A program made the position numbers and the translations under genes. This document shows, piece by piece, positions 2,614 to 21,495 of a DNA stretch of 64,000 bases (position 1 is the first letter of the stretch; each line of letters opens with the position of its first letter). The stretch is from an uncultured bacterium. GTDB lineage: Bacteria; Elusimicrobiota; Elusimicrobia; Elusimicrobiales; Elusimicrobiaceae. The notes beneath the pieces were generated by a model that did no database searches, was not told where the DNA came from, and worked only from the letters and a program-made list of their open reading frames with translations. The stretch covers positions 201,874 to 265,873 of the forward strand of contig CASEWB010000009.1 of the NCBI GenBank assembly GCA_949291545.1, given 5' to 3'.

Positions 2614-2877
2614 ATGGAAGAAAAGGAAATTATTCAGACCGAAGAAATTATTGAACCCGAAATTTTGGACGAACACGGAAATCCCATTCATGCTGGGCCC
2701 GCTAAAGATTCCGCCCGCCCCAAAGGCGATACGGGGGGAATTATCGGCGGGGTGTTTGTGCTGGCGTTTGGGTTTATTATGACGCTTTTAGTAGCGGTGT
2801 TTAGTATTTGCATCGTGCTGCCCCTGATGCTGTTGGGGCGTTTGTTGGGAATGCAAATTAAAACTTTCCGCCGGTAA
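2614..2877 (+). CDS. Small membrane protein, unknown function
   Basis: 87-aa ORF with an acidic N-terminus followed by a long hydrophobic stretch (GGIIGGVFVLAFGFIMTLLVAVFSICIVLPLMLLG). A terminator follows. Confidence 0.5.
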   Translation: MEEKEIIQTEEIIEPEILDEHGNPIHAGPAKDSARPKGDTGGIIGGVFVLAFGFIMTLLVAVFSICIVLPLMLLGRLLGMQIKTFRR

Positions 2878-3715: not shown

Positions 3716-3743
3716 CTAAAAAAGCCCCTTGAGGGGGCTTTTA
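3716..3743 (-). terminator. Terminator-like hairpin upstream of the OMP gene
   Basis: aaaagcccc-ttga-gggggctttt. On the minus strand the stem is followed by TTTTTTAGC, so it would stop a leftward transcript coming from 3744 onwards. Confidence 0.5.
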
Positions 3744-3835
3744 AATGGCGGAGAGCTGAATTTCCCTAGCCAAATGCTCTTTTGGCCCTTATCGCGCCTC
3801 CCTGCATAACAGGGAGAAAACAGGGGTCTTTTATA
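3744..3835 (-). ncRNA. Candidate small RNA (GC-rich, two hairpins plus the 3716-3743 terminator); identity unknown
   Basis: Minus strand reads ...CTCCCTG-TTATG-CAGGGAG...GGCCAAA-AGAGCA-TTTGGCT...GCTCTCCGCCA, then the terminator. There is no ORF. It sits at the GC/AT transition of the island. Confidence 0.2.
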
Positions 3836-3892
3836 ATAATAAATAATATATAATAATTAAAATAAAATGATACAGATTTAAGAGAATATCAA

Positions 3893-4936
3893 ATGCCATA
3901 CCACATAACCTCATCAGAAAAAACAAATGAACGGGCCTCCGATACGGAAACCAAAGCCTTATTATATTTGATGAATTTTTATAGAAATTGCGACGATATT
4001 GAATTTTTTGCTATTGATTTCTTTAATGACGTGACAGGTATCCATCGCTTACAAGACGAAGCCTATGACTTGCAATCTAAAGGAAATAGGAATATTAATG
4101 CAAAAAAAATCGGTAGATCTTTAATTACTCTTTTCAAAAATTATATTTCTGATTTAAATTTTAAGGATTTTATTCTATTCATAGGAGGCATTGCTCCTTC
4201 AGCACTGATAGATACCAATCTATCCGTATTTGATATTAATAATTTTACTACAAAAGCTCAACAAGCAATTAAGAGAGGATTAAAAGAAGAAGGAACGGAA
4301 AAAAGCTACATTGATAAATCTTCAATTACTGATGCTAATATAAACTCATTTTTATCTAAAGTTTCTTTTGTTATTGATGATAAATCTAAAGAAGATTACA
4401 TTAAAGGTATTATTCGGAATGAGAATATTATTATTGATGATGAAAAAGAATACTTGCAAAAAATATTTGAAGAAATTAGAGCTAAACAACATGCAAAAAA
4501 ACTGTCAAAAGTAGAAGGAATTTGTATTCATCAAATTTCTGAATTTTTCCATTACAGCCGCCATCTTTCTACAGGAGATATCAAATTAATGGTCTTAAGC
4601 AGATTAGTAAATAAAACGTCATTAATAGACGGAATTCCTCAAAGTTTTATGGAATATGCTTGTTCTATCAGGGAAAACAAGTTTGATAGACAGGAATTTA
4701 TTCAGTCTTGTCAAAATCAGCTATTCAGAATGGTCTGTGACAAAAACAATGCTCAGGCATATTGGCAACTCTTTGAAGACATTTACTATATAGCAAAAGA
4801 CCCTCTCAATAAAAATCAATCTCTTGAGGCTTTACTTAAGACAATTCCGCGGGATCATATCCTGAATGTACATCACTTAGATCGAGAGGCAGTTTTATAC
4901 TTTATTGCCTTACTCAAGGAGGCATTCGAGAAATGA
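3893..4936 (+). CDS. Restriction-fold nuclease-like effector (Cap4/DUF4297-like, LmuA-like) with helical C-terminal domain
   Basis: 347 aa. It has an N-terminal helix with Glu (SDTETKALLYL), then FFAIDFFNDV...(17 aa)...AYDLQSK, matching a D...D...QxK nuclease-core pattern. ATGA overlaps the next ORF. Confidence 0.5.
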   Translation: MPYHITSSEKTNERASDTETKALLYLMNFYRNCDDIEFFAIDFFNDVTGIHRLQDEAYDLQSKGNRNINAKKIGRSLITLFKNYISDLNFKDFILFIGGIAPSALIDTNLSVFDINNFTTKAQQAIKRGLKEEGTEKSYIDKSSITDANINSFLSKVSFVIDDKSKEDYIKGIIRNENIIIDDEKEYLQKIFEEIRAKQHAKKLSKVEGICIHQISEFFHYSRHLSTGDIKLMVLSRLVNKTSLIDGIPQSFMEYACSIRENKFDRQEFIQSCQNQLFRMVCDKNNAQAYWQLFEDIYYIAKDPLNKNQSLEALLKTIPRDHILNVHHLDREAVLYFIALLKEAFEK

Positions 4937-6546
4937 TTATTCTTAAAAAAGTAGCATTTGGAAGTGCAGAAGAAGCTTTTATTGAAAATTCATTACAACC
5001 AAACTGCAATATTATATACAGCCATGATAATAACAAAGGAAAAACAATTGTAACCCAATCTATTGGATACGTTTTAGGCAATGAACCAGCTTTTCCCAGC
5101 GGTTTTAGTTATAAACATCTTTACTTTTATCTTGAGTTGGAAACAAACCAAAGCATTCTAAAAATTTGCCGAAAAAATAATTCTTTTATTATTAAAAGAG
5201 GAAACCATTTCCATTTGTACGACTCCATATCAGAATTTAAACGTTTTTTTAGTCAATATATTTATTCTCTTCCATTAATTATAAAAGAAGGAGACAATAC
5301 ATTGAAGTTAGTTGATCCTGTTTTATTTACTCAACTCTTCTTTGTTGGTCAAGATGGGAGGAATGCTTCTTCAATCTTTAATGACTCATACTATACAAAA
5401 AAAGATTTTATCAATATGGTTTATGCGTGGAGTAAATGCTATACCTTAGACCAGAATACTAATCCCGATAAAATCAAGCATGAAATAGAAGAACTTAAAA
5501 AAGAAAAGAATTATTTAATCAAAAAAACTCATATTCTATCTGAATTATCTAACTCTATTGCTTATGCTAGTTATATCAAAAATCAAGAACAGATAGATGC
5601 AAAAATACAAAAATTAGAAGAAAAAAATGCAGAATTGAATAGTTTTAAGAAAAAAATTAATAGATTATACAGCTCCAAGATAAAGAATGAAAATCTACTG
5701 AATGAATTAAGATCACTAAATGCAGAATTGAAAGAAGGACGGCTAACATGTCTAGACTGTGGATCTTCGTGCATAGGATATGAAAATGCCCACCAGAATG
5801 TTACCTTTGATGTGTCCGATACAACAATCCGCGCCAATATTCAAAAGGCAATTCAGGAAAGGATTGATTCTGCCAAAGAAGACATTCAGCAATTTTCCAA
5901 AAAAATGTCTGATCTTCAAAATGAAATACGCAATCTAATGCAAGAAGAAGATGTTTCAATAGAAAGCTTGTTATTGGTTAAAAAAGAATTATTAAGTGTT
6001 GCAGACGCAGAAAAAGAAGTGCAACAAATAGATCAAAAAATTCTAAATCTTTCTAATAAACTACATAATTTATTAGAACAAATAAATATAATAAAAAACT
6101 CAAAAGAAGAAATAAAAAAACAACTTCTATTTTTTATGAATGAATTTTATAAAGAGGTTGACCCTTTCGGAAAACTTGATTTTGACTCTTTATTTGCTCG
6201 TAAAGATCAGACTTTTTCAGGAAGTGAAAACGCTGAATTTTATTTAGCCAAATTATATGCCTTAGTAAAAACATTGCAACATCCTTTTCCGATCATAGTT
6301 GATGGTTTCCGAGAGGGTGAGCTGTCAACACCAAAAGAAGCAATCGTGCTAAGTAAATTCTCTGCCCTTCCTAATCAAGTCATATTTACAACTACTTTAA
6401 AAAAACAAGAATCTAACAAGTATATTTCTATACAAAATATTAATGCTATCAACTATGATAGTAATTCGCCAAGCCATATTTTAAGCAATATATATTTAGA
6501 GGATTTTCGAAATATTTTAAAAGAGATAAATATAGTATTAAAGTAG
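4933..6546 (+). CDS. Rad50/SMC-like ABC ATPase with coiled-coil insertion and CxxC hook (LmuB/DUF3732-like)
   Basis: 537 aa. Motifs are Walker A HDNNKGKT followed by SIGYVLG, Q-loop FFVGQDG, signature-like FSGSEN and Walker B PIIVDGF. Residues ~175-400 are heptad/Lys-Glu rich, with LTCLDCGSSC at the midpoint. Confidence 0.65.
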   Translation: MIILKKVAFGSAEEAFIENSLQPNCNIIYSHDNNKGKTIVTQSIGYVLGNEPAFPSGFSYKHLYFYLELETNQSILKICRKNNSFIIKRGNHFHLYDSISEFKRFFSQYIYSLPLIIKEGDNTLKLVDPVLFTQLFFVGQDGRNASSIFNDSYYTKKDFINMVYAWSKCYTLDQNTNPDKIKHEIEELKKEKNYLIKKTHILSELSNSIAYASYIKNQEQIDAKIQKLEEKNAELNSFKKKINRLYSSKIKNENLLNELRSLNAELKEGRLTCLDCGSSCIGYENAHQNVTFDVSDTTIRANIQKAIQERIDSAKEDIQQFSKKMSDLQNEIRNLMQEEDVSIESLLLVKKELLSVADAEKEVQQIDQKILNLSNKLHNLLEQINIIKNSKEEIKKQLLFFMNEFYKEVDPFGKLDFDSLFARKDQTFSGSENAEFYLAKLYALVKTLQHPFPIIVDGFREGELSTPKEAIVLSKFSALPNQVIFTTTLKKQESNKYISIQNINAINYDSNSPSHILSNIYLEDFRNILKEINIVLK

Positions 6547-6549
6547 TAT

Positions 6550-7305
6550 ATGCACATCAAATTCCTATTGAAACGTTTGCCGGGAGTAAATATTCATACC
6601 CATCCGCCATATAAAGTGGTTACTAGCGGCCGGGCATTGGAAAATTATCCGGCTGGCTACAGGAAAGTGTCGTCGGAATTAATCTTTTTGGCCCGGACAA
6701 TCGTTCTTAATCAAGATTTTGTCCAATTTGTAAGAAATTTCCGTCAAAAACATGGTTTGCCTATCGAAGGATTTGAAACAGGACCTTGTCATTTCATACT
6801 TAGAGATAAAAAACACAAAAAACTCGCTAAATTAGCCCAACAAGTACAATGGGATTTAACTTCCAGTGAAGTGCATGGATATTATTCTATCCATTCGCTT
6901 TTAAAACCCCATCTTTTCTCTATTGTGTGGTGTAACATCATTGAACACCATATAGAACCAATTTCTATCTACTACGCTACACATGAGGAACCTTGGTTAA
7001 AAATCCATATTACCCACGACATCAAATTTTCAGAACTAATTGGATTTCTCCGCACCAAGAAAGCAGATATTGAAGCCAATTTAAAAGAATTACCCTCAAA
7101 ATATTTCACCAAAACCGATCTGGAAAACATCCGTTTAATTAGTTTACAAACCAAACGAATGACAGAAACCGATTTATTTGAAAGAGCTCAAAAAGACAAA
7201 GTATTAAGGAAATTAATCCCAAATTTAACCATTGATGCCTTCCACAAAAGATGCGGTCGAGCCAGAAAACTTGTAAAAAATCTCTTCATAGCTAAAAGGA
7301 CATAG
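6550..7305 (+). CDS. Hypothetical protein, third gene of the cassette (no recognisable motif)
   Basis: 251-aa ORF that starts 3 nt after the stop of the ATPase gene. It has a basic C-terminus (HKRCGRARKLVKNLFIAKRT). Confidence 0.5.
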   Translation: MHIKFLLKRLPGVNIHTHPPYKVVTSGRALENYPAGYRKVSSELIFLARTIVLNQDFVQFVRNFRQKHGLPIEGFETGPCHFILRDKKHKKLAKLAQQVQWDLTSSEVHGYYSIHSLLKPHLFSIVWCNIIEHHIEPISIYYATHEEPWLKIHITHDIKFSELIGFLRTKKADIEANLKELPSKYFTKTDLENIRLISLQTKRMTETDLFERAQKDKVLRKLIPNLTIDAFHKRCGRARKLVKNLFIAKRT

Positions 7306-7381
7306 TTTTCCACTTTTCGTGTCCTCGTAAGATACCTCTGTTATCACTATACTGTGTTATATTCCGATAACGGAGGTAAAT

Positions 7382-8632
7382 ATGAAAATTGAAAATATCC
7401 CTGTCGAAAAACTTAAGGCTTATTCTCGCAACACACGCATACATTCGCCCAAACAAATAGAACTATTGGCACGAAGTATTAAAGTCTTTGGTTTCAACAA
7501 TCCCGTGTTAATTGATAAAAACAATGTTATTTTGGCAGGACATGGCCGCGTTTTAGCAGCCCGAAAATTAAACTTAAAATCAATTCCCACGGTAAAAATT
7601 GAACATCTTACCCCACTTGAATTGAAAGCGTTTCGGATAGCAGATAACCGAATAGCCGAGCAAAGCAGCTGGGATAAGGCCTCCCTAAAGCTGGAATTTC
7701 AAGAGCTAGTCTCATGCCAGGACGAAATGGATGTCAATTTAACGGGTTTTTCTACCCCGGATATTGATTTACTCTTCCTTTCCGAAATAAATACATCAAA
7801 AGAAGAAACTTTGGACATTCCCCTCGATATCCCAAGGCGCGTCAAACCGGGCGATTTATGGAGTTTAGGAAGACACCGCCTTTTTTGCGGCAATGCGCTG
7901 GAATCCAGCAGTTACCGGGAACTATTAGGAAACCAAAAGGCCGATATGGTATTTACTGATGCCCCGTTTAATGTAAAAACGGACGGGCATATCTGCGGAA
8001 ACGGAAAATATAAGCACAAAGACTTTGCCATGGCTCACGGAGAGATGACTCCGCAAGAATTTACCGATTTCCTTTCGCAAACGTTCAAGAATTTGATTCA
8101 ATTCTCAAAAGACGGCTCGCTCCATTTTGTATGCATGGATTGGCGGCATATTTCCGAAATATCCACCGCCGGCAAAGCTTATACTGCTCTTAAAAACATC
8201 TGCGTATGGGATAAACAATGCGGAGGAATGGGGTCTCTGTATCGTTCCCAGCATGAATTTTTCTTCCTGTTCAAAAATGGCAACGCCACCCACATTAATC
8301 ATATTGATTTGGGGAAATATGGACGGAACAGAACAAATGTATGGAGTTATCCCGGCGTGAGGGTTTCCAACCCCGTAAACCGAAACGACTTAAAATTCCA
8401 TCCAACCGTTAAACCCGTAGGAATGATCGCTGATGCCATTTTGGACGTTAGCAACATCAGAGATATCGTTCTTGATTGCTTCGCGGGAAGCGGATCCACT
8501 TTGCTCGCCTGTGAAAAGACAAATCGCAAGGGTTACATGATGGAAATTGATCCGCACTACTGCGACGTTATTCTATATCGCTTTGAACAATTAACAGGTC
8601 AAAAAGCCAAATTTGAGGAGGTACTCGCATGA
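7382..8632 (+). CDS. ParB-like N-terminal domain fused to beta-class N6A/N4C DNA methyltransferase
   Basis: 416 aa. The ParB/Srx-type N-terminus is KLKAYSRNTRIHS...ILAGHGRVLAARKL. Motif IV-like is VFTDAPFNV and lies upstream of motif I DCFAGSGSTLLACE. An RBS ggagg lies 7 nt before the ATG. Confidence 0.8.
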   Translation: MKIENIPVEKLKAYSRNTRIHSPKQIELLARSIKVFGFNNPVLIDKNNVILAGHGRVLAARKLNLKSIPTVKIEHLTPLELKAFRIADNRIAEQSSWDKASLKLEFQELVSCQDEMDVNLTGFSTPDIDLLFLSEINTSKEETLDIPLDIPRRVKPGDLWSLGRHRLFCGNALESSSYRELLGNQKADMVFTDAPFNVKTDGHICGNGKYKHKDFAMAHGEMTPQEFTDFLSQTFKNLIQFSKDGSLHFVCMDWRHISEISTAGKAYTALKNICVWDKQCGGMGSLYRSQHEFFFLFKNGNATHINHIDLGKYGRNRTNVWSYPGVRVSNPVNRNDLKFHPTVKPVGMIADAILDVSNIRDIVLDCFAGSGSTLLACEKTNRKGYMMEIDPHYCDVILYRFEQLTGQKAKFEEVLA

Positions 8633-8949
8633 CATTACGTATCAAATGTAGACCTTATAAAGTAGGACCAGGACATCCGCCGAAAGAATTTCAGTTCAAA
8701 CCCGGACAATCGGGTAATCCCAATGGTCGGCCAGCAAACAGCCGAACGATGTATTCTCTTATGAAAGAAGAGTTCGGGCGTATGGTAACAGTAAGCGACG
8801 GAAAACAAAAAAGCGAAATTGCCGCCAAACAAGCACTGGCACGTAAATGGTTGCATGACGCTTTGCGAGGCAATATCAAAGCTTCAGAAATCGTACTGAA
8901 ATTTTTAACACGGGAAATGGACTCAGATCATACCTCTTTACCAATTTAA
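8629..8949 (+). CDS. DUF5681-like small protein (GQSGNPNGRP motif)
   Basis: 106 aa with an ATGA overlap to the methylase gene. KPGQSGNPNGRP is the motif I associate with DUF5681 proteins of phages and plasmids. Confidence 0.55.
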   Translation: MTLRIKCRPYKVGPGHPPKEFQFKPGQSGNPNGRPANSRTMYSLMKEEFGRMVTVSDGKQKSEIAAKQALARKWLHDALRGNIKASEIVLKFLTREMDSDHTSLPI

Positions 8950-8976
8950 AGGATATAGTGTGAATCTGGATTTATT

Positions 8977-9018
8977 ATTCGGACAGAAATTTGTCGTTTC
9001 TGTCCGAATTTGTTTTAA
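8977..9018 (+). terminator. Rho-independent terminator of the methylase operon
   Basis: Perfect 13-bp stem attcggacagaaa / tttctgtccgaat with a 7-nt loop, followed by ttgttttaat. Confidence 0.8.
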
Positions 9019-9096
9019 TAGAGTTGTAGTAGCAAGTTTGTGTGACTCGTTTTGGAGCCGTAAAGGCAACGATTTAGACGAATTTACCGTCTAAAT

Positions 9097-9181
9097 GGTG
9101 ATCAAGCCAAGATGAGGTCATGGTTTTGCTGTGCCCAGCTGGGCATGGTGGCGATGACCCATTTCTGAGCGTTTGATCACC
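9097..9181 (+). other. GC-rich nested-stem element containing a perfect 14-nt palindrome
   Basis: The outer stem is ggtgatcaa (9097-9105) / ttgatcacc (9173-9181) and the middle stem is ggtcat / atgacc. The apex is tgcccagctgggca (9132-9145). It sits in the non-coding gap upstream of the PD-(D/E)XK gene. Confidence 0.45.
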
Positions 9182-9222
9182 CTCAAAGTGCGGTCGTCGC
9201 TTTTTTATACCCTCTTTTTGAT

Positions 9223-9242
9223 AAAACGACCAACCTTTGTCG
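9223..9242 (+). promoter_or_regulatory. Leader motif AAAACGACC-N7-GTCG, copy 1 of 3 (candidate operator)
   Basis: aaaacgacc aaccttt gtcg lies 56 nt upstream of the ATG at 9279. The same motif and spacing precede the ATG at 14719. Confidence 0.5.
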
Positions 9243-9278
9243 CTTAATAGAGCTATACTATTGAAAAGGAGGATTTTT

Positions 9279-10508
9279 ATGAATAACTCCCAGCAAGAGC
9301 AACTTACCAGCCTGTACAATCTGATCAAAGATCCTAATTTGGCGATTTTAGAAAGCAAGTTACAAGAATTTAATATATTTTCAATTCTTAATTTAAGTCG
9401 CCAAGAAATACGCCATTCTACAATGCTGGCTTGGTTATTTAATCCCCAAGCAAACCACCATTTGGGGACAGCTCCTTTAAAAGGATTACTGTTACAATTA
9501 CCAGAAAACTATCAGCACGATGCTCTGCTACATATTTCCAACCTAAATCCTGCCGAAGTTGAAGTATCAACGGAAAGTGACACCGAAACAGGACGTATTG
9601 ATATATTAATCAAAGGAAAAGAATTTATTATTGGTATTGAAAATAAAATTGATACAACCGATGCCCCTGGTCAACTGGCTAAATATGCCCGATACATCAA
9701 CCAACAGTTTGCACACATACCATCTAAGTATTTATTATATTTAACACCTAATGGTTTACAGCCAAAAGAATCAGAAAATGAAATTATACAGTTATCATAT
9801 ACGGATATCACACACTTAGTTGAACATTTACTAATTACAATTCCTAATATGTCCACTCAAGTACAGACCTTACTTTTGCAATATCAACAATTAATTCAAA
9901 GAGAGATTACTATGGAAGATAATGAAATTAAAAAATTATGTTCTCAATTATATGAAGCTCATAAAGACGCGATCGAAACAATTCTTGAGTACAAGATAGA
10001 TATCCAAGCTAAAATTAGTAACCTTTTAAGCCAACGTCTTCAAACCGAAGGAAATGAAATTCACATTTATCGTGATAGCAAATGTTTTTTTAATTTTTCC
10101 CCTTCTTCTTGGGAAAAGTATGACTTTGCCCAAGTTCCTCAAGGAGTTTGGTTGAAAGATTGTAAAGACTTAATTCTATTTGAATTTTTTAACGACAAGA
10201 AAAATCTTCAAGTTAAATTAGTAGTGGGCCCTACCGGAGAAAGCAAAAAAGCAGAAGAAATCAAACAAAAATTATTAAAAAGAATACCAGACAATTTTAA
10301 AAAACGATCATCTGGCAAAAAATGGACCACGATTTACTCTAAACAATTATTACAATATAAAGACCTAAACATTACCGAGGAAACCGAAAATCACTTCAAC
10401 AATAAATTAGATCAATGGTTAAATGATGAATATCCCAAACTTGTTTCCCAAATTGATGAAATAATGCAGCAACTCCAACAGGACTATGAAAGAGAAAACG
10501 CTCAATAA
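9279..10508 (+). CDS. PD-(D/E)XK nuclease family protein (PDDEXK_4-like)
   Basis: Start chosen at the ATG 7 nt after aaggagg; the track ORF starts at TTG 9237. Motifs are FNIFSILNLSRQEIRHSTMLAWLFNPQANHHLG and GRIDILIKGKEFIIGIENKID (D...ExK). Confidence 0.7.
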   Translation: MNNSQQEQLTSLYNLIKDPNLAILESKLQEFNIFSILNLSRQEIRHSTMLAWLFNPQANHHLGTAPLKGLLLQLPENYQHDALLHISNLNPAEVEVSTESDTETGRIDILIKGKEFIIGIENKIDTTDAPGQLAKYARYINQQFAHIPSKYLLYLTPNGLQPKESENEIIQLSYTDITHLVEHLLITIPNMSTQVQTLLLQYQQLIQREITMEDNEIKKLCSQLYEAHKDAIETILEYKIDIQAKISNLLSQRLQTEGNEIHIYRDSKCFFNFSPSSWEKYDFAQVPQGVWLKDCKDLILFEFFNDKKNLQVKLVVGPTGESKKAEEIKQKLLKRIPDNFKKRSSGKKWTTIYSKQLLQYKDLNITEETENHFNNKLDQWLNDEYPKLVSQIDEIMQQLQQDYERENAQ

Positions 10509-11406
10509 ATTAACCCGTACGATTTACCTGCTTAATGTTTTGGACGGCGGGCATATTGATATCCCTCGCGAAGCAGAAGAACTGGGCGTAACCGTACGAA
10601 CAATTCAACGGGATATTCTTAATTTAGAAGCGGCGGGCATCCCGCTCTATAAAGTTAAACCGGGGACTTATAGTTTCACGGAAGGTTTTTCCTTAAAAAA
10701 ACTACAATTATCCAAGGAAGAACTATCCGCTCTTGTATTGCTTTCAGCACTGGCAAAACCGTTTGGCTCTCGGTTTGAAAACCTAATCTCTAATTTAAAT
10801 CAACGACTTATACGGCCTTTAAAGGAATCTCCATATTATTTCCAAATTACTTCTTCAACCTATGAAAAATCCCCCATCACGCAGGCATTAGAACAGGCCA
10901 TCAACACCCACACGGCCGTATATTTAACATTTGCGGCGGATCCCGCCAAAAAACTGAATTATTATCTGCAACCGCTCAAATTACTACACTCTGGCGGATT
11001 TTGGTATGTGTTTGGCTTAAACGACCGAACACAAATCAAAACATTACGTTTGGACCGCATTTTAGAGATCAAAAACACACAAGAGGCTTTCAAACCCTCC
11101 AAAACAGCGTTAGAAGCTTTAAAAGCAAGTACCAGCGTATTCTTTAACGAACAAGCAAAAACCCGCGTAATTTTGAAAATTGAGGGAACTATTGCCTCTT
11201 ATTTTGAGAAACGGAACTATTTTCCCAGACAAAAAATTTTAACCAAACATTCAGATGAGAGCCTAACACTTGAAACAACTATTTCCCAAAACGAAGAAGT
11301 ATTGCTTCCCCTAATGCCTTGGCTGCCTTACATTCATATTGTAGAACCCCTCTCTTTAAAGCATACGCTACATGATATGCTAAAGAAATATCTTCAACAG
11401 AATTAA
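10486..11406 (+). CDS. HTH + WYL-domain transcriptional regulator (YafY/BrxR/CapW-like)
   Basis: 306 aa. The N-terminal wHTH is LGVTVRTIQRDILNLEAAGIPL. The WYL-type core is HSGGFWYVFGLNDRTQIKTLRLDRI. It overlaps the nuclease gene by 23 nt. Confidence 0.75.
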   Translation: MKEKTLNKLTRTIYLLNVLDGGHIDIPREAEELGVTVRTIQRDILNLEAAGIPLYKVKPGTYSFTEGFSLKKLQLSKEELSALVLLSALAKPFGSRFENLISNLNQRLIRPLKESPYYFQITSSTYEKSPITQALEQAINTHTAVYLTFAADPAKKLNYYLQPLKLLHSGGFWYVFGLNDRTQIKTLRLDRILEIKNTQEAFKPSKTALEALKASTSVFFNEQAKTRVILKIEGTIASYFEKRNYFPRQKILTKHSDESLTLETTISQNEEVLLPLMPWLPYIHIVEPLSLKHTLHDMLKKYLQQN

Positions 11407-11414
11407 CTTGACTA

Positions 11415-11450
11415 TCCCTCCCATGTAAGCGGTAATATACGTGGGAGGGA
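11415..11450 (+). promoter_or_regulatory. Hairpin sequestering the Shine-Dalgarno of the DUF2924 gene
   Basis: tccctcccatgt (11415-11426) pairs with acgtgggaggga (11439-11450), giving 12 bp with one G-U. The right arm contains the SD GGGAGGG for the ATG at 11453. Confidence 0.5.
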
Positions 11451-11452
11451 AT

Positions 11453-11857
11453 ATGCAATATCCAAAAACACTAACAAACGAAGAATTGGTTAAAATCTGG
11501 GCCCAGTATATTAAAAAACCGATGCCCAATTTGCGAAACTCCTTGCTGATTAGATATATCACGTGGTATAAACAAGCCTACGAAAATAAAATCAATCCGA
11601 AGCATTTCTTCAGACGACTCGCTCAAGCACAGAAAAACCTAGAACAAGGTAAAACAGACATCCTACAAGAAAAAACTTTTCCCGTAGGCTCTTGCTTAGT
11701 GCGCTCTTATAAAGGCGTTCAGTACAAAGTGGAAATCGTTTCAAACGGCTATTTGTATAGTAGCAAAACATACAAGAGCTTATCCGCCATCGCTCGGGAA
11801 ATCACAGGCAAACAATGGAATGGGAAAGTATTTTTTGGAGTCAAAAATGATAAATAA
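11453..11857 (+). CDS. DUF2924 protein (recombinase-associated)
   Basis: C-terminal YKSLSAIAREITGKQWNGKVFFGVK matches the DUF2924 signature (SLSAIAR.ITG..W.G..FFG). It lies immediately upstream of, and overlaps, a serine recombinase gene, which is the usual arrangement. Confidence 0.75.
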   Translation: MQYPKTLTNEELVKIWAQYIKKPMPNLRNSLLIRYITWYKQAYENKINPKHFFRRLAQAQKNLEQGKTDILQEKTFPVGSCLVRSYKGVQYKVEIVSNGYLYSSKTYKSLSAIAREITGKQWNGKVFFGVKNDK

Positions 11858-13472
11858 ACCTATCCGATGCGCCATTTATACGCGAAAATCATCCGAAGAG
11901 GGGCTGGATCAGGACTTTAACAGCCTGCAAGCTCAACGGGAGGCATGTGAAGCGTATATCAAAAGCCAAAAATCGGAGCATTGGTTTTTGATTCCAACGG
12001 CCTATGACGACGGAGGATATTCCGGCGGCACATTGGAACGCCCAGCCCTGCAACAATTACTCGCGGACGTAAAAGCGGGGAAAATTGATATTATCGTCGT
12101 CTACAAAATAGACCGTTTAACCCGCAGTTTAATGGATTTCAGCAAAATTATAGAAGTGCTCGACGTCCACCAAGCGTCTTTTGTGTCTATTACACAACAC
12201 TTTAATACTACAACCAGCATGGGCCGCTTAACGCTTAACATGCTGTTATCTTTTGCACAATTTGAACGGGAAGTAACGGCGGAACGCATCCGGGACAAAT
12301 ACGCCGCCAGCAAAAAGAAGGGAATGTGGATGGGCGGATATCCCCCTTTTGGCTACGAACGCAAGGACAAGAAACTCATCCCCCACCCACAACAAGCCGC
12401 TATATTAAAGTCTTTGTTCAAACAATATCATTCATTAAAAAGCGTAGGGAAACTATTGGATTGGGTCCGGGAAAATAATGTTCAAACCTCTTTGGGTAAG
12501 CCCTTCACCAAGATTAACCTGCATCGCATCTTATCCAACCGGGTTTACATCGGGGAAGTTGGGCATAAAGGGACATGGTATCCGGGCCTGCATCAAGCAT
12601 TAGTCAGCACAGAGCTTTTCTCTTCCGTTCAGCAAATTATTGAAGACCACCAGGTAAATCGTGTGCGGCATGACACACACCCCAGTTTTTTAGCCGGCAA
12701 ACTGTTTGACGATAACGGGAACCGTATGAGCCCAAAAGCTAGCGGTTCCGGCAACAAGAAAAGACGGTACTATACCAGCCAAGCCATGATTAAGCAGGAA
12801 AGAGAAAAACTAGGCGTTATTACACAAGTTCCAGCTGGAGAGCTAGAAAATTTTGTTACCCAACGATTAAAAGAACTGTTAACTTCTCCGGCATTTTTAA
12901 CCCCGCTGTTATCAAACATCCATATATCCTTACAACAAGATATTGAAAAACAACTCCCACAGTTATCGCTATCTACTGAAACAAGAAGATTACTCGTTGC
13001 AAGAGTTGATTTATTTCCCAATACGTTAAAATTGACCGTATCTCCCGCCCAAATCAGAGAATTTTTACTCTCTTTAGCGGAAAACCGCCCGTTTAAACTT
13101 ATCCCCGCAGATTCGCTTGAAAGTTTCGAATATCCTTTCCAAATCAGACGGGCGTGCAAAGGAAAAAAGATTATTTTAGGAACTGAAAATCCTATCCCTA
13201 ATTATCCCAAAGAACCATTAGTTAGAATTATTTGTCAAAGTTATACTTTGCGGGAAAAACTATTCTCCGGCCAGGCCTCCTCTATTTTAGAATTGGCGAA
13301 GCAAGAAGGTTATACTGACAGCTATATATCCCGATTATTAGAAATATCCTTCTTACCCGCCAGAACTATTTTGGATATCCTATCCGGCGCTTCAAAAGAA
13401 GTTTTAAGCGTTAAAGATTTACTCAAGTTAAAAAACGACCGAAGGCTGTCGCGAGAGGATATTAAAATATAA
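11847..13472 (+). CDS. Large serine recombinase (resolvase/invertase N-domain + recombinase + C-terminal extension)
   Basis: IRCAIYTRKSSEEGLDQDFNSLQAQREACEAYI contains the catalytic Ser region. Also present are VVYKIDRLTRSL and SFAQFEREVTAERIRD. Start set at MINKP; the track ORF begins at 11820. Confidence 0.9.
   Translation: MINKPIRCAIYTRKSSEEGLDQDFNSLQAQREACEAYIKSQKSEHWFLIPTAYDDGGYSGGTLERPALQQLLADVKAGKIDIIVVYKIDRLTRSLMDFSKIIEVLDVHQASFVSITQHFNTTTSMGRLTLNMLLSFAQFEREVTAERIRDKYAASKKKGMWMGGYPPFGYERKDKKLIPHPQQAAILKSLFKQYHSLKSVGKLLDWVRENNVQTSLGKPFTKINLHRILSNRVYIGEVGHKGTWYPGLHQALVSTELFSSVQQIIEDHQVNRVRHDTHPSFLAGKLFDDNGNRMSPKASGSGNKKRRYYTSQAMIKQEREKLGVITQVPAGELENFVTQRLKELLTSPAFLTPLLSNIHISLQQDIEKQLPQLSLSTETRRLLVARVDLFPNTLKLTVSPAQIREFLLSLAENRPFKLIPADSLESFEYPFQIRRACKGKKIILGTENPIPNYPKEPLVRIICQSYTLREKLFSGQASSILELAKQEGYTDSYISRLLEISFLPARTILDILSGASKEVLSVKDLLKLKNDRRLSREDIKI
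13441..13461 (+). repeat. Leader motif copy 2 (aaaaacgaccgaaggctgtcg), inside the 3' end of the recombinase gene
   Basis: 20/21 identical to 14664-14684. It has the same AAAACGACC-N7-GTCG architecture as 9223-9242. Confidence 0.6.
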
Positions 13473-13661
13473 AAGAGAGATAAACAGAAATGTCCAAAAT
13501 GTTGAGAGTAAGAAGCTCTTTCAAATAATAAAAATTACCTAAATAAGCTCGTTATATTGCTTCGCAGGAGTAAATAGGAAATAAAGGCGGTCATTAAAAG
13601 GCATAAAGTTCCCCAACCTTACTGGAGAAACCAGCCACAGGACTGCAAACAGGGAGATTAT

Positions 13662-14483
13662 ATGTACTTTGTAGAAGAAATAGCTCACATGTATAGCAAA
13701 AAACTGCAAAACACTTGGCAAACGCTTAAAAAGCCCTCAAAAGAAACTATAAAATGTCCGAGTAAAAAGTTAGAAGAGTTTTTTACGGAATTTACCCTGG
13801 GGGAATGCTATCTTTTTGCCGGCAGTCAGCACTATATGGCATTTTCCCATTTTAGAGCTTGGTTACTACACTATTGTATGCAGCAAGTTTTAAATGTGGA
13901 AATTATTGGTCAGCAAATACGTCCCGAGGAAGATTTCAAGTGGCTTCTCTCTTTAGAGAGTGGTATTAGTTTTCCCAAACTTTCGTTTTTGGAAAAAGCA
14001 GATAAAGACAAACAAGAAATTATAGGCAAAGCTGTCAGCGCTCTCAGAACTAAAAAAGTTACCTGGTGCAATTTTAAAGGTGCATTTTATGAAACTAACA
14101 GTTCTGTTTTATTCTTTTCAGTTCCCTTAAAAGAATGGCAGAAAGGACGATATCATCTCTTTTCCAAAATAGCTAAGGAAACAAAGAAGTTAATTTTTGT
14201 TTTTATCTATATGGACCAGTTAAAAGATATGCGGCATGAAAATCCATATTATTTATCTTTATCAGATTTGTATAACGAAGATTTACCTCTTATTACGGAA
14301 GAATATGGAACATCTCTGGGGCTTATATATCCCAGCTGGCCTATGTGGAAAGAATCATGGTTAGAAGAAAAAACCTCTGACATTACACTTCAGCTACATG
14401 GTATTAGTCGGATCAAAAGGAATTATTTGTTCTTCTCTATTAATAAGCAAGAAAAATTAGAGGATTATGATAGTATAGACTGA
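13662..14483 (+). CDS. Degenerate DnaB C-terminal-domain-like protein (P-loop lost)
   Basis: 273 aa that can be aligned by eye with the next ORF. LGECYLFAGSQHYMAFSHF sits where GKLTFVASKPGQGKTAF (Walker A) would be. LIFVFIYMDQLKD sits where LVTIDYFQLIKG (Walker B) would be. Confidence 0.45.
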   Translation: MYFVEEIAHMYSKKLQNTWQTLKKPSKETIKCPSKKLEEFFTEFTLGECYLFAGSQHYMAFSHFRAWLLHYCMQQVLNVEIIGQQIRPEEDFKWLLSLESGISFPKLSFLEKADKDKQEIIGKAVSALRTKKVTWCNFKGAFYETNSSVLFFSVPLKEWQKGRYHLFSKIAKETKKLIFVFIYMDQLKDMRHENPYYLSLSDLYNEDLPLITEEYGTSLGLIYPSWPMWKESWLEEKTSDITLQLHGISRIKRNYLFFSINKQEKLEDYDSID

Positions 14484-14663
14484 TCAAAAAAATAAATCCC
14501 ATTACTTTATGTTTTCCAGAGAGCATCTAATTTGCCCATAGGCCTTCTTGTAATAAAAACTAACAAATTGGGGCAAAACCTATGCTGAAAAAGAGAAAAT
14601 AACTTAATAAGAATATCTATCACCAAGCTGTTTACTCTTGGTGCTGAAGATTTACCCAATTTC

Positions 14664-14684
14664 AAAAACGACCGAAGCCTGTCG
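14664..14684 (+). repeat. Leader motif copy 3 (aaaaacgaccgaagcctgtcg), 55 nt upstream of ATG 14719
   Basis: Near-perfect direct repeat of 13441-13461. Downstream, aaaaaggagga-N4-ATG mirrors the 9223 copy (gaaaaggagga-N7-ATG). Confidence 0.6.
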
Positions 14685-14718
14685 TAAAGACGATTCAAAC
14701 TGTAAAAAAGGAGGAAAT

Positions 14719-15465
14719 ATGCATATAAATAAACATTTTATCCCAACCGGTATCCAATCATTAGACGCCGCCATTGGCGGATTAAAAACAGGCAAGCTGA
14801 CCTTTGTAGCATCCAAACCGGGGCAAGGAAAAACGGCTTTCCTGGCAAATGTGGTAGCACACACTACCGTGTCGCAGCATATTCCGACGGTTATTTTCTC
14901 TATAGAAATGGGGAGGAACAGTCTTTATGAACGCTTAGTAGCCAAAATAAGCAAGATCAAAATTGAACTTTTAAGAAACGGTTATTTTTCCCGGGAACAA
15001 CACAAACGGCTTATTCAGCCGGCATTAGATAGTCTGCAGAAGTCCCCGTTGTATATTGATGATACAGCCGTTATCAACATGGAAGAGATTTGTCAGCGGA
15101 CACGCCGGCTATATAAAGAATTATCCCAGACGTGTGTAAAGCTTAAATTAGTGACTATAGATTATTTCCAATTGATTAAAGGGGCGCAAGCCGAAACAAA
15201 CCACATATTGGCACAACTGAGAGAGCTGGCCCGCGACCTGCAAATTGCCATTATAATTTCTATACAATGCAAACGCCATGAGGACAATATCCAACCGTCC
15301 TTGTCCGATATTCGCATCCCAACAATGGATATACAAAAAGAAGATAAAATTATTTTCCTATACGGGGACGCTAGCGATACGATTAATCTATCCGTCTACA
15401 CGGCAGAGCATATGTCCAACACCCTACAAATTCCATTTGATAAAGGCAGTGGGCACATGGGATAA
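14719..15465 (+). CDS. DnaB-family helicase C-terminal (RecA-like ATPase) domain only
   Basis: Start at MHINK after aaggagg. Motifs are TGIQSLDAAIGGLKTGKLTFVASKPGQGKTAFLANV, VIFSIEMGRNSLYERL, PLYIDDTAVINMEEI, LVTIDYFQLI and SLSDIR. The N-terminal DnaB domain is absent. Confidence 0.75.
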   Translation: MHINKHFIPTGIQSLDAAIGGLKTGKLTFVASKPGQGKTAFLANVVAHTTVSQHIPTVIFSIEMGRNSLYERLVAKISKIKIELLRNGYFSREQHKRLIQPALDSLQKSPLYIDDTAVINMEEICQRTRRLYKELSQTCVKLKLVTIDYFQLIKGAQAETNHILAQLRELARDLQIAIIISIQCKRHEDNIQPSLSDIRIPTMDIQKEDKIIFLYGDASDTINLSVYTAEHMSNTLQIPFDKGSGHMG

Positions 15466-15466
15466 T

Positions 15467-16030
15467 TTACTGTTTATTTTCCTTTTTTAGTTTATTAACA
15501 TACTTTTGCAAGTATCCTTCTATTTGGAAATAGCGCAAAACAGCGGATTTGCTTAAATCATAGCTACGTCTGGAGGCAAATTCTTTTAACTCATTAATAG
15601 CGGCTAAATATCGCTCATTTACCACCAATTCGAGTTGGATTTGCAGTTCTTCTTGCAGTTGCATTTGCACATCTTTGACCGCTTGCAATGCATTATATTT
15701 CGCCCCCATTTTTGACACTTTTACCACCGGACTCCATAACATATAGACTTTTCGAAAAGAAGGAAAATGGGCATCAATATAACTCTTATCTTTTTTAAAT
15801 TTCTGAATAAATTTATTCGTTGTATTGGGACGCTTTGTCTTCGTGTTTACATATTGTAAACCCAGGACATGTGCCGCCACCTCACAAACATATATAGTAT
15901 TCTGAGCCATTTGCAAACCGATAACGTCTATTTCAGTTTGATGAGGCCCCTTTACGTTATATTCCACAAAATCACATTTTTTGATGTGACGCAACCATTC
16001 CCCGGTTAATTCTTCCGCTATATTAGGCAT
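15467..16030 (-). CDS. Hypothetical protein, possible restriction-endonuclease-fold N-domain
   Basis: 187 aa. AEELTGEWL...TEIDVIGLQ...IYVCEVAAH resembles an E...D...ExK core but lacks the Lys. The stop codon is 1 nt from the stop of the convergent DnaB-like gene. Confidence 0.35.
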   Translation of the reverse strand: MPNIAEELTGEWLRHIKKCDFVEYNVKGPHQTEIDVIGLQMAQNTIYVCEVAAHVLGLQYVNTKTKRPNTTNKFIQKFKKDKSYIDAHFPSFRKVYMLWSPVVKVSKMGAKYNALQAVKDVQMQLQEELQIQLELVVNERYLAAINELKEFASRRSYDLSKSAVLRYFQIEGYLQKYVNKLKKENKQ

Positions 16031-16051
16031 AATCCTCTTCCTCTGATTAGT

Positions 16052-17035
16052 TTAGCAATAATCATCTATACCCTCAGGTCCTTGCCAAATTAAGCCTCTA
16101 TCAAGAGTTATTGTTTTTTCGGCTCCATTTCTTTCAAAAAATGAACCTAATGATATATGAACAAACCCCTTATCAAATATAATTTTTGATGCTGACCAAG
16201 GTTTCATATTTGTCTTATTTGAGCAAATAACCCAAATAGTGTTGTTATCTTCTGATATAACAAAATCTTCAAGAATAGACTCATACTGTTTGTTTCTGCA
16301 AAAAACTTTACCCACCTGAAGATTTTGCGCATAACTTAACAAAGGCTCCTGAATTTCTGTATTTACAGGACAGAGCGGAAATTCGGAAGGAATTTTCCAA
16401 TCTTCTTGAAAAGCTCCCGCCGTTAAAGAAGGCACTCGAAAGTCTTTTACTGGGGATTCTTGTTTTTTTGGGTCTTGAAAAATCCAATCTCCCAGTTTTC
16501 CTTTAGAAGCAGTCTGTTCTTTAGCTATCCATTTTTCCATATTGCGCAAACAATTAGCCGCCTCCTCTTTAGTTACCGTTCTCATCCAATTAAAATTAGG
16601 CTCTTCGTTACTTGGAGGCAACAATGCCGGGTTTTCCAAAAAAGCTTCTATACTGCCACAATAATATTCAATTTTTTTACGTGTATATGGATTTTTAAGA
16701 ACATTTTCCAAACGAGACAGCCAGCGAAGGTTCTCCGGCCGATTATTGCGTCGGTTAGTATCAATATGGTCAACTACATATTCTTTATTGGGAGGAATAC
16801 CATGAAATGCAGTAGCAACAATGCGATGAACCCGAATCGAAACTATTTCCATATAACCTGTTATTGCATTAGGTCTTCCAAAAGTCCATTGATTATCCAA
16901 GGGACGAATACGTTTGTTAGGCCGAGCATGCCGCATTATAGCACCATTATTCCGCACGGAATAATGCTCGCCTTCATATACGCAATCTTTCTCTTGAGAA
17001 AAATCATCTATATTTACTTGACTCATATTTGTCAT
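16052..17035 (-). CDS. HNH endonuclease (phage HNH_3/NUMOD4-like) with unknown ~170-aa C-terminal domain
   Basis: VHRIVATAFHGIPPNKEYVVDHIDTNRRNNRPENLRWLSRLEN is an H-N-H motif. The N-terminal YSVRNNGAIM is NUMOD4-like. Confidence 0.8.
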   Translation of the reverse strand: MTNMSQVNIDDFSQEKDCVYEGEHYSVRNNGAIMRHARPNKRIRPLDNQWTFGRPNAITGYMEIVSIRVHRIVATAFHGIPPNKEYVVDHIDTNRRNNRPENLRWLSRLENVLKNPYTRKKIEYYCGSIEAFLENPALLPPSNEEPNFNWMRTVTKEEAANCLRNMEKWIAKEQTASKGKLGDWIFQDPKKQESPVKDFRVPSLTAGAFQEDWKIPSEFPLCPVNTEIQEPLLSYAQNLQVGKVFCRNKQYESILEDFVISEDNNTIWVICSNKTNMKPWSASKIIFDKGFVHISLGSFFERNGAEKTITLDRGLIWQGPEGIDDYC

Positions 17036-17160
17036 TGTATATCAAATATCCAGTAGGAGCAACCCAAATTCCACTTCTTTTTTGGAAAACGGAGCATGGG
17101 CAAGCCGTTTCCCCGTTATTTTGTCCACATAACCCCATTGGGAGCAACTTTTAGTGGAAT

Positions 17161-17203: not shown

Positions 17204-17227
17204 GCTCTAAAGGTTATAAAAAAGACA

Positions 17228-17314
17228 CGGAGAGGGAGAGATTCGAACTCTCGATACGGTTTCCCGTATGCAGTCTTTCCAGGACTGTGCCTTAAACCGC
17301 TCGGCCACCTCTCC
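17228..17314 (-). tRNA. tRNA-Ser (anticodon GGA), long variable arm, no encoded CCA
   Basis: The minus strand reads GGAGAGGTGGCCGAGCGGTTTAAGGCACAGTCCTGGAAAGACTGCATACGGGAAACCGTATCGAGAGTTCGAATCTCTCCCTCTCCG. It has a 7-bp acceptor stem, anticodon stem-loop CAGTC-CTGGAAA-GACTG, a variable arm and T-loop GTTCGAATC. Confidence 0.95.
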
Positions 17315-17385
17315 AAAAGTGTTGCGGACTAAGTACCTATTTATTATAGCAAATTAATGTTTAAGTGTGTATTTGCCGACAGAAA

Positions 17386-17646
17386 CTATTGTTCTGCCGA
17401 CGATTTTGCGTGGTGTTTTACTAACAAATCCCGTAGGGTTTCTACGGTGGCGGATTGACCGGATAATACCACTTCTCCGTCTATTATCAATGCGGGTGTG
17501 TGCAAAATGCCATATTGCACAATGGCGTTTAGATCGTCTATTTTTTCCACGGTTTCATTCCAGCCCAACGAGTTAAGGGCTTGTTGTGTGTGCTTACCGA
17601 GCAAATTGCATTTGGCACAGCCCATTCCCAATACTTTAATTTCCAT
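17386..17646 (-). CDS. Thioredoxin-fold redox-active disulfide protein 2 family
   Basis: 86 aa. MEIKVLGMGCAKCNLL contains a CxxC. It lies downstream of an ArsP-like permease, a recurrent operon. Confidence 0.75.
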   Translation of the reverse strand: MEIKVLGMGCAKCNLLGKHTQQALNSLGWNETVEKIDDLNAIVQYGILHTPALIIDGEVVLSGQSATVETLRDLLVKHHAKSSAEQ

Positions 17647-17655
17647 TGTTTCCTC

Positions 17656-18626
17656 CTATAAAATAGCGTTTAGCAAATATCCAACGGCCATAAACGCTGT
17701 AATTAAATACAGTAAAAACAGCCCAATCATTTTAGCGGAGAGTACTTTTTTTAACATCATCATCTCCGGTAAAGAAATAGCGGTAATGCTCATTAAAATT
17801 ACCAACGCCGTTCCCAGCGGTACACCCTTTAACAGCAAGGCCTGTATAACGGGGATTACTCCCGCGTGGTTGGCGTATAATGGCGCCCCTATAATGGAAG
17901 CCAATGGCACCGCCCACGGGTTATCGGCCCCCAGGTATTTGCTTAAAATTTCCACCGGCACGAACCCGTGTATGGCGGCCCCGACTAAAAGCCCCAAAAT
18001 AATATAGAGCCATAGGTTTTTAAGCGTGTCCCAGGCGAAATGATGTGCGTAACGCAGCAAATCTTGCACGCGTTGAGTGAGCGTTTGCCGCCCGCATGCG
18101 CACGCTGGCATGGCATGCGTGGGTGGGCGGTAGGTGCATAATTTTTCTAGATGCAGCCGGTCCGCCAGCCAGCCCCCTATTACGGCAATTATTGTGCCGC
18201 TGGCTACATACACACAGGCAACCCATAGGCCTGCGCCTTGCATGCTGATTAGCATAAAAGTTGCAATTTCGCTGACTAAGGGGGAGCTGATTAAAAATGC
18301 CATCGTAATTCCAAACGGAATTCCCGCCGTGATAAACCCAATAAAAAGCGGAATGGACGAGCAGGAACAAAACGGCGTTACGACGCCTAAAAATACAGCT
18401 AAAAAATATCCATACCACCGGTTTTTGCCGGCTAGGTAGTTGCGTATTTTTCGGGGGACAGCTGCGCACGAAAAAGCGAAATAACAAAAATGAGGACGTA
18501 AATTAAAACAAAAATCTTTGTTATATCCTCTATAAAAAAATGAACGGAGCTGCCCAATGGCGTTTGGACGCATAGCCCCATTTGCGCGGTAGCCCAATCG
18601 GCTAGGCGAGTAAAAATTTGAAACAT
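17656..18626 (-). CDS. ArsP/DUF318-type permease, reading frame interrupted near 18447-18451
   Basis: The 313-aa ORF carries GVVTPFCSCSSIPLF and multiple TM segments. The membrane N-terminus (FVLIYVLIFVISLFRAQLSPEK) is in a separate 64-aa ORF (18432-18626) in another frame. Confidence 0.75.
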
Positions 18627-18689
18627 AAAACCTCCAGATATTTATCTATATATCTAAATATATAGATGTATTTGCGCAAAAAAATTTCC

Positions 18690-18983
18690 CTATAGGGGAT
18701 TCTTTTTTTGCGTTTCCAACAAAGCGGAAATGTAATGTTGCATTTCGCGCAAGCCGGTATTTTTTAAAGAGTAATGAATCCAGCGCCCTTCTTTGCGGGC
18801 ACAAACGAGCCCGCTGTCACACAGAATTTTCATATGGTGCGAAAGGGTGGATTGCCCAATTTTCAGCTCTTGCTGTAAGTGGCAGGCACACATTTCCCCG
18901 CCGCGGAGCAATTGCACAATTTGTACACGGTGCTCATCGCACAGAGCCTTAAATAGGCGGGCTGTTTGGTGGGGTAAGTGCAT
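18690..18983 (-). CDS. ArsR/SmtB-family metalloregulator
   Basis: Start at MHLPHQ after aggagg. Motifs are LCDEHRVQIVQLLRGGEMCACHLQQELKIGQSTLSHHMKIL. Confidence 0.85.
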   Translation of the reverse strand: MHLPHQTARLFKALCDEHRVQIVQLLRGGEMCACHLQQELKIGQSTLSHHMKILCDSGLVCARKEGRWIHYSLKNTGLREMQHYISALLETQKKNPL

Positions 18984-19074
18984 GGTCTCCTCCTGCTTTA
19001 TTATAGCAAATATATCGATAAATATCAATGTATTTTAATAAAAAACACCCCCGGGGCCGGGGGTGTCGTTTGGA

Positions 19075-20406: not shown

Positions 20407-20417
20407 ACAAATAACTC

Positions 20418-21397: not shown

Positions 21398-21495
21398 TCT
21401 ACTTATACTATGCGGCGGACGGAAAAGTATCACACTTATTTATTTTAACTTTTCTGAAATAGGAAAAATACTCCCCGGTTTGCCCGGGGAGTTGA

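Follow-up and report, generated by a model that had tools for sequence, protein, structure and literature searches.

Lamassu systems were originally defined by two Pfam domains, DUF3732 on LmuB and DUF4297 on LmuA. In type I Lamassu, as in BcLmuAB (PDB 9ux7; clade S of the short Lamassu), lmuA is followed directly by lmuB and lmuC is lacking, when the type II systems, together with DdmABC and ABC-3C, have the order LmuA-LmuC-LmuB. A 2:1 LmuB:LmuA complex, sensing of DNA ends, activation of LmuA as a tetramer and anti-phage activity have been described for BcLmuAB and VcLmuACB (bioRxiv 10.1101/2025.06.23.660979; PMC12663957). The type I LmuB of Bacillus cellulasensis (BcLmuB) carries a zinc hook, 285CQYC288, and kinks at residues 210-225 and 351-357 of its coiled coil (bioRxiv 10.1101/2025.06.23.660979), VcLmuB is without zinc hook, and SbcCD has been proposed as the ancestor of Lamassu (PMC12663957). 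In the 64,000-nucleotide (nt) stretch of contig CASEWB010000009.1 analysed here (hereafter the window), two adjacent genes, ORF1 and ORF2, were identified that probably constitute a defence module complete in itself. This module has no LmuC, is related to type I Lamassu but divergent from it, and is carried as cargo in a variable slot at the left end of a genomic island, beside a tRNA-Ser gene in a genome of gut Elusimicrobiota (Candidatus Avelusimicrobium).

An earlier note on this DNA, made from the letters alone, had described three open reading frames (ORFs) as one translationally coupled cassette. Their coordinates and junctions were confirmed as follows:

3893..4936, + strand: ORF1, 347 amino acids (aa)
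4933..6546, + strand: ORF2, 537 aa
6550..7305, + strand: ORF3, 251 aa

ORF1 and ORF2 overlap by the 4 nt ATGA (4933-4936) with no gene between them, and ORF2 is separated from ORF3 by 3 nt, all three ORFs being on the + strand.

Neither Pfam nor NCBIfam nor PHROGs returned an informative match for ORF1-3, and single-sequence phmmer queries against the PDB returned nothing useful. PADLOC models in turn matched the first two proteins over their full length, PDC-M22A in ORF1 (4e-118) and PDC-M22B in ORF2 (2.5e-180), and the same hidden Markov models also matched 43/43 ORF1-family and 40/40 ORF2-family members. Judged by these profile matches, the ORF1-ORF2 locus is a member of the PADLOC candidate PDC-M22, which belongs to a set of 145 systems predicted from their embedding within defence systems (‘guilt-by-embedding’; Payne et al., bioRxiv 10.1101/2024.01.29.577857); the pair had therefore already been listed, and the suggestion that it was undescribed did not hold. 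Our literature search found no paper mentioning ‘PDC-M22’, and no text stating its relationship to type I Lamassu, a zinc hook or a Cap4 fold. Close (≥90% identical) homologues of ORF1 and ORF2 in RefSeq, from Candidatus Avelusimicrobium stercoris, are labelled ‘hypothetical protein’, and the assignment of the host was taken from cluster names.

ORF2 is a clear homologue of LmuB according to PADLOC, the family profile and Foldseek. Several PADLOC LmuB models matched ORF2, the best being PDLC00254 (1.7e-23, full length), and this model matched 39 of the 40 ORF2-family members (best 3.9e-32). The ORF2-family profile retrieved one significant sequence from the PDB, the 562-aa type I LmuB 9ux7_A (E = 2.8e-10), in an alignment spanning residues 19-491 with the family CxxC placed on CQYC. 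The AlphaFold model (predicted local distance difference test, pLDDT, 82.5) consists of an N-terminal head half, a coiled coil and a C-terminal head half. Its best Foldseek match was again 9ux7_A, from the type I LmuAB-DNA complex (E = 3e-20, template modelling (TM) score ca. 0.52), followed by type II LmuB proteins and then by SMC and Rad50/SbcC heads. The NCBIfam Rad50/SbcC scores were weak, 13-18 bits against cut-offs of 700-1000. The following features were located in ORF2:

5020..5046, + strand: Walker A (P-loop), S30-HDNNKGK-T38, aligning to GNTKGKS of BcLmuB
5464..6159, + strand: antiparallel coiled-coil arm of about 230 aa (aa ~178-409), from AlphaFold secondary structure and pLDDT
5749..5760, + strand: zinc hook C273-L-D-C276 (CxxC) at the apex of the coiled coil, both Cys invariant in 40/40
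6214..6228, + strand: ATP-binding cassette (ABC) signature F428-SGSE, S429 and G430 invariant, E432 in 38/40
6289..6303, + strand: Walker B, P453-IIV-D457, then G, D457 invariant

Among the 40 homologues (39-49% identity), Walker A residues S30, N33, G36, K37 and T38 and the Q-loop residue Q140 were likewise invariant. The coiled-coil arm is kinked, being interrupted at aa 207-216 and 338-353. The Walker B aspartate is followed by S in 17 family members, by A in 10, Y in 7, G in 5 and C in 1, and never by an acidic residue. This resembles the pattern hhhhD[Q/S/T/E] of short LmuB proteins (PMC12663957), reaching somewhat past it. The earlier proposal of a Rad50/SMC-like ATPase of the LmuB type, with these ATPase motifs and a coiled-coil insertion of about 230 aa, is thereby borne out, when the CxxC zinc hook had been overlooked. 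Apart from this, the N-terminal head (ORF2 aa 20-107; window 5020-5250) matched PADLOC PDC-M46B in 39/40 members (best 1.3e-17), and this profile similarity suggests an additional related, uncharacterised ATPase family.

The likeness of ORF1 to LmuA is limited to its predicted fold, the order of its domains and its catalytic motif. In the AlphaFold model (pLDDT 89.9, predicted TM-score 0.84) the N-terminal alpha/beta domain (aa ~1-175) has the Cap4/DUF4297 fold, and the C-terminal domain (aa ~185-347) is helical. The best Foldseek matches were LmuA 9hr5 (3.5e-5) and LmuA 9nxx, with further matches to HerA-DUF4297 (9c1m), Cap4 (6vm5/6wan) and Hachiman HamA (8zue), and PADLOC LmuA gave a weak match (9e-4). 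The motif which had drawn attention in the letters was confirmed at its position:

4016..4081, + strand: predicted catalytic motif of ORF1, D42, N45-D46, D59-x-Q61-x-K63 (AIDFFNDV...YDLQSK)

Residues E19, D42, N45, D46, D59, Q61 and K63 were invariant in 43/43 homologues (27-58% identity), and K63 lies near the position of the catalytic K57 that has been mutated in BcLmuA and VcLmuA (PMC12663957; bioRxiv 10.1101/2025.06.23.660979). The assignment of ORF1 to the LmuA-like nucleases of Cap4/DUF4297 fold is thus supported by the Foldseek matches and by the invariant motif. The descriptions of the ATPase as miniature and of both proteins as shorter than the classic ones were overstated, as ORF2 has 537 aa versus 562 aa in 9ux7 and ORF1 347 aa versus 372-391 aa in the solved LmuA chains.

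The extent of the conserved unit was surveyed from the side of the ATPase, in 87 metagenomic and viral loci with ORF2 relatives (31-97% identity), of which 77 extended at least 1 kb upstream and 64 at least 900 nt downstream. An ORF1-like gene was found upstream in 76/77 loci (adjacent and on the same strand in 75), and an ORF3-like gene downstream in 1/64, i.e. in L026, where the element of the window recurs. Clustering of the genes flanking PDC-M22 pairs revealed no other recurrent partner. Four distant contexts, inspected gene by gene, each had a different gene downstream: one for a 579-aa protein of no recognised family, 610 nt away; one for a ParB-methyltransferase, within a prophage; one for HipA, encoded on the opposite strand; and one for UDP-glucose dehydrogenase. 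Because the ORF1-like gene is almost always present, the ORF3-like gene occurs in one locus of 64 and the downstream genes differ, the conserved unit consists of two genes.

The pair is distributed patchily across distant phyla, at 38-50% identity. Seven ORF2-family loci were found in IMG/VR viral contigs, and the pair is therefore carried by phages too. A scan of genome contigs with ORF2 yielded only two further copies, L013 and L014. Both represent the same element as in the window and do not count as independent evidence. L013 (CAKSUD010000012.1) is labelled ‘uncultured Clostridia bacterium’, with the element and flanking genes the same as in the Elusimicrobia loci L014 and L009, and is probably a mis-binned contig. 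In L017 and L018 (3992-8115), a PDC-M22 pair of 44-45% identity resides inside a prophage, between an S-adenosylmethionine synthetase gene and a ParB-methyltransferase gene and near GmrSD and GpA terminase, with no ORF3 between the pair and the methyltransferase.

The position of the pair became apparent when the window was compared by BLAST with other copies of the island, in which homology ended at 3825, restarted at 6526-6549 and continued to 13477. The gap in homology delimits a slot preceded by a conserved segment:

3743..3825, no strand assigned: conserved segment at the left of the island, immediately ahead of the slot, with the hairpin CTCCCTG-CATAA-CAGGGAG at 3798-3816
3826..6548, + strand: variable cargo slot, 2.7 kb, 29-31% GC, carrying only ORF1 and ORF2

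The left segment (about 80 nt) is 83-90% identical to L001 7767-7841 and L009 5096-5172, and partly to L005 4374-4442, and the DNA beyond it differs from locus to locus in the window, L001, L009 and L005. The slot measures 137 nt in L001, where it is empty, 2.8 kb in L009 and 3.5 kb in L005, and its cargo, with identities confirmed by PADLOC models, was found to be the following:

window, + strand: ORF1 and ORF2 (PDC-M22)
L001: empty, 137 nt
L005 and L006, opposite strand: Gabija (GajA 1.7e-202, GajB 1.2e-102) and one uncharacterised gene
L009 to L012, opposite strand: DUF3800 protein and PD-T7-3-like protein
L023, opposite strand: Thoeris (ThsA 7e-51, ThsB 1.5e-57)
L025: two uncharacterised genes beside a WYL gene, and a CBASS set farther out

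The swapping of PDC-M22, Gabija, Thoeris or nothing in one slot is independent genomic evidence for the defence role of the pair, which is supported because the same slot holds defence systems in sister copies.

ORF3 in turn stands outside the defence pair, and the backbone of the island starts with it. Its homologue lies directly upstream of a ParB_N-N6_N4 methyltransferase gene in every locus, with DUF5681 next in nearly all, and it always adjoins the variable slot, a position kept even in relatives found by profile search alone. No match to ORF3 was obtained from Pfam, PADLOC (including LmuC), NCBIfam or PHROGs. A word-indexed search of 5.8 billion sequences placed its relatives in 11 clusters, exhaustive HMMER search of 1.84 billion representatives with the ORF3 profile retrieved 12 small relatives, none annotated, and a scan of viral contigs with the ORF3 family found no relative.

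These data bear on the reading of the earlier note, by which ORF1, ORF2 and ORF3 would constitute a three-component variant of Lamassu, or an ABC-3C-type system. ORF3, encoded after the ATPase, would in this case be an accessory subunit in an LmuC-like role. The 3-nt gap, the common strand and the result of a scan of the ORF2-ORF3 junction, in which no terminator-like sites were found, are in agreement with such a cassette, and ORF3 bears no annotation that would contradict a role as subunit. However, ORF3 homologues occur next to an empty slot or to opposite-strand Gabija, Thoeris and DUF3800 cargo, and invariably precede the ParB-methyltransferase, when 63/64 ORF2-family loci contain no ORF3-like gene. 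Moreover, nucleotide homology to the other copies begins at, or about 25 nt before, the ATG of ORF3, the ORF3 family comprises 11-12 clusters as against at least 107 for ORF1 and at least 338 for ORF2, and ORF3 is unlike the cargo in GC content (0.36, with 0.31 in ORF1 and 0.29 in ORF2) and in codon usage. A three-component system is on this evidence extremely improbable, and the ABC-3C version fails because no LmuC-like gene is present. Of the earlier interpretation, the nuclease-ATPase pair as a Lamassu relative stood and the third component fell: the co-occurrence of ORF3 with the ATPase, which had been proposed as a check, was seen in one of 64 loci, a copy of the same element. ORF3 abuts ORF2 only because of the way in which this cargo inserted, and the case corrects a tempting misreading, as close spacing of genes is by itself no proof that an operon works as one system.

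A different role for ORF3 was considered as well, that of a backbone-encoded slot regulator or insertion-site factor (for instance a transcription factor, a protein of anti-defence or immunity, or one that serves as landing pad) which acts on any cargo and is not a subunit. The conserved position next to the slot, also in the profile-only relatives, and the basic C-terminus of ORF3, HKRCGRARKLVKNLF, would suit such a factor, but the searches made gave no domain or homology match, and ORF3 is equally explained as the plain first gene of the methyltransferase/DUF5681 module. We regard this role as quite improbable.

When set beside BcLmuAB, the ORF1-ORF2 pair shares most of the type I features tested, i.e. 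LmuB fold, LmuB homology, zinc hook, gene order and absence of LmuC. Both have the two-gene lmuA-lmuB order, ORF2 falls within the LmuB range of about 540-560 aa, and its P-loop NxKGK[ST] is followed by Y-x-LG. The single CxxC hook is at the position of that in BcLmuB, the kinks of the coiled coil are at matching places, the Walker B aspartate is without a following Glu in both ORF2 and type I LmuB, and the effector is predicted to combine a Cap4-type nuclease at the N-terminus with a C-terminal domain made of helices. On the other hand, ORF2 is only about 16% identical to BcLmuB, PADLOC lists PDC-M22 separately, and the ORF1 family is without detectable sequence similarity to LmuA, bar one match. 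The pair is accordingly rated as a divergent type I-like clade of Lamassu, previously catalogued as a candidate, and forms no new system category.

Several results weigh against this assignment and against the self-contained, defensive nature of the module. The domains of the original definition of Lamassu are absent from the pair: at E≤1, the Pfam check that had been proposed gave zero matches, DUF4297 being absent from ORF1 and 43/43 ORF1-family members and DUF3732 from ORF2 and 40/40 ORF2-family members (83 family members scanned in total). The link of ORF1 to LmuA at the sequence level was seen in just 1/43 family members (9e-4, PADLOC), the ORF1-family profile found no LmuA match, or any other, among PDB sequences, and the likeness of the ORF1 C-terminal domain to the LmuB-binding domain of LmuA comes from a Foldseek alignment of low TM-score (0.38-0.40). 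ATPase turnover may be unusual, because the Walker B aspartate precedes G in ORF2. ORF3 is probably co-expressed with ORF2 in this copy, read-through being plausible because no terminator-like site lies between them; a promoter scan returned 18 promoter-like sites, with 17.4 expected from shuffling, and therefore an own promoter for ORF3 cannot be claimed. Finally, the defence role of PDC-M22 is a prediction only, presently without assigned mechanism.

The type II Lamassu, DdmABC and ABC-3C systems resemble the pair in their homologous LmuB-type ATPase and LmuA-fold nuclease and, presumably, in a sequestered effector that would be freed upon sensing of DNA ends. They differ in having LmuC, when nothing is located between ORF1 and ORF2 and ORF3 is no analogue of LmuC, and ORF2 has the zinc hook that VcLmuB lacks. 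SbcCD and Rad50-Mre11 are similar in their zinc-hook SMC-like ABC ATPase with coiled coil, a structural neighbour of ORF2, but the coiled coil of ORF2 is far shorter (about 230 aa), its Walker B is non-canonical, and its partner has a Cap4 fold instead of being a phosphoesterase of the Mre11/SbcD type.

This partner is relevant to a further explanation, in which the pair would be a non-immune machine of DNA repair or processing, or an addiction module of a mobile element, i.e. a small analogue of SbcCD/Rad50-Mre11 with a Cap4-fold nuclease replacing SbcD. The similarity of ORF2 also to Rad50/SbcC and SMC heads, with weak NCBIfam Rad50/SbcC matches, the proposed descent of Lamassu from SbcCD (PMC12663957), the frequent location of the pair on mobile elements and prophages, and the predicted status of the PDC-M22 defence role all speak for it. 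Yet the nearest relatives of ORF2 in sequence and structure are LmuB proteins and not SbcC, the partner is a Cap4/LmuA-type effector, sister elements carry bona fide defence systems in the same slot, the PADLOC prediction was based on the embedding of the pair within defence systems, and its distribution over distant phyla is patchy at 38-50% identity. The explanation is consequently considered very unlikely.

For the preferred reading, a Lamassu-like module of ORF1 and ORF2, a mechanism can be drawn by homology from the literature, the contribution of the present analysis being homology and architecture. Two ORF2 molecules would pair via the coiled coils and through the CxxC zinc hook, and this dimer would keep one ORF1 monomer inactive by gripping its helical C-terminal domain. 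When a phage or plasmid invades, contact of the ATPase heads with its free DNA ends or with intermediates of its replication would let ORF1 go, whereupon the freed ORF1 could oligomerise and its Cap4-type nuclease (D42, D59, Q61, K63) cut up DNA, and this degradation would abort the infection. The analysis places PDC-M22 in the type I lineage of Lamassu, with K63, K37 and C273/C276 as candidate key residues, and ORF1 with ORF2 (347 + 537 aa) could serve as a minimal model of a zinc-hook LmuB restraining a Cap4 nuclease.

In a bolder view, which is unlikely, PDC-M22 is an independent minimal branch of Lamassu, with an effector that has diverged in sequence past recognition from all known LmuA proteins and an LmuB in which the residue next to the Walker B aspartate is never acidic, and might therefore hold and free its nuclease otherwise than BcLmuAB. 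Separately, in the same view, the slot headed by ORF3 could be an undescribed defence hotspot on a satellite-like island of Elusimicrobiota, with ORF3 as a regulator or landing-pad factor of the slot.

The island as a whole is about 13.4 kb long, low in GC and situated at approximately 3743-17140 beside tRNA-Ser(GGA). Beyond ORF3, the backbone genes were identified by Pfam, PADLOC and NCBIfam matches:

7382-8632, + strand: ParB_N-N6_N4 methyltransferase
8629-8949, + strand: DUF5681 protein
9237-10508, + strand: PDDEXK_4/PDC-S26 protein
10486-11406, + strand: WYL regulator
11441-11857, + strand: DUF2924-like protein
11820-13472, + strand: large serine recombinase
17227..17315, - strand: tRNA-Ser(GGA), at the right-hand flank of the island (ARAGORN), the same tRNA as at the element in L005 and L006

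The backbone (7382..13472) is collinear with L001, L005 and L009 at 77-88% nucleotide identity, and the close copies keep the order ParB-methyltransferase, DUF5681, PDDEXK_4, WYL, DUF2924 and large serine recombinase. Its GC content is 0.36-0.43 (0.43 in the ParB-methyltransferase) with about 0.50 in the host, and the genes past the serine recombinase encode a 273-aa protein, a DnaB_C-like ATPase, a 187-aa protein and an HNH protein.

Phage satellites and integrative islands, such as the P4-like satellites and phage-inducible chromosomal islands (PICIs), have defence hotspots. The present island resembles them in its fixed slot by a conserved backbone gene, with alternative defence systems or nothing between copies, and differs in its backbone, from ORF3 to the large serine recombinase, and in its host phylum, Elusimicrobiota, when its own status as a satellite is inferred from L025 only. 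In that locus DUF5681 is followed by a large terminase, and this gene order hints at a phage or satellite origin of the island. The ORF3-adjacent defence hotspot on a serine-recombinase island of about 13 kb is the most useful by-product of the analysis.

The PDDEXK_4 gene of the backbone matches PADLOC PDC-S26 (3.5e-81) and overlaps the gene of the WYL/HTH/WCX regulator (window 9237-11406). The two were found together in the close copies examined (L001-L006 and L009-L011), and in L023 with the PDDEXK_4 gene split in two; they may represent a second, fixed candidate defence module. A second variable region was observed near the right end (window 15467-17035), where the minus strand encodes the 187-aa protein and an HNH_3 homing-endonuclease-like protein (PADLOC HEase 4.7e-12), and L005 has a different, 248-aa gene.

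Comparison of the left and right ends of the island by BLAST for terminal repeats gave chance-level matches of 7-10 nt only. At the start of the left segment (window 3719-3755) stands TGGCGGAGAG, which in reverse complement resembles a tRNA-Ser 3′-end with CCA. This tRNA-like remnant is followed on the minus strand by a terminator hairpin, and only 7 nt match the real tRNA-Ser. Origin of the left segment as a displaced 3′-end of tRNA-Ser was considered possible and set aside as unsupported, because the remnant differs in L005 though the tRNA is identical.

In L005, the block of left segment, island and tRNA-Ser is in reverse orientation relative to the shared host flanks (window 2784-2877 and 19075-21971 versus L005 16663-16756 and 1124-3995), so that the related host genomes differ here by an inversion or a rearrangement. 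Genes for a thioredoxin-like protein, an ArsP-type permease and an ArsR regulator are present on the minus strand at window 17386-19028, between tRNA-Ser and the host flank common to L005, where L005 is without them.

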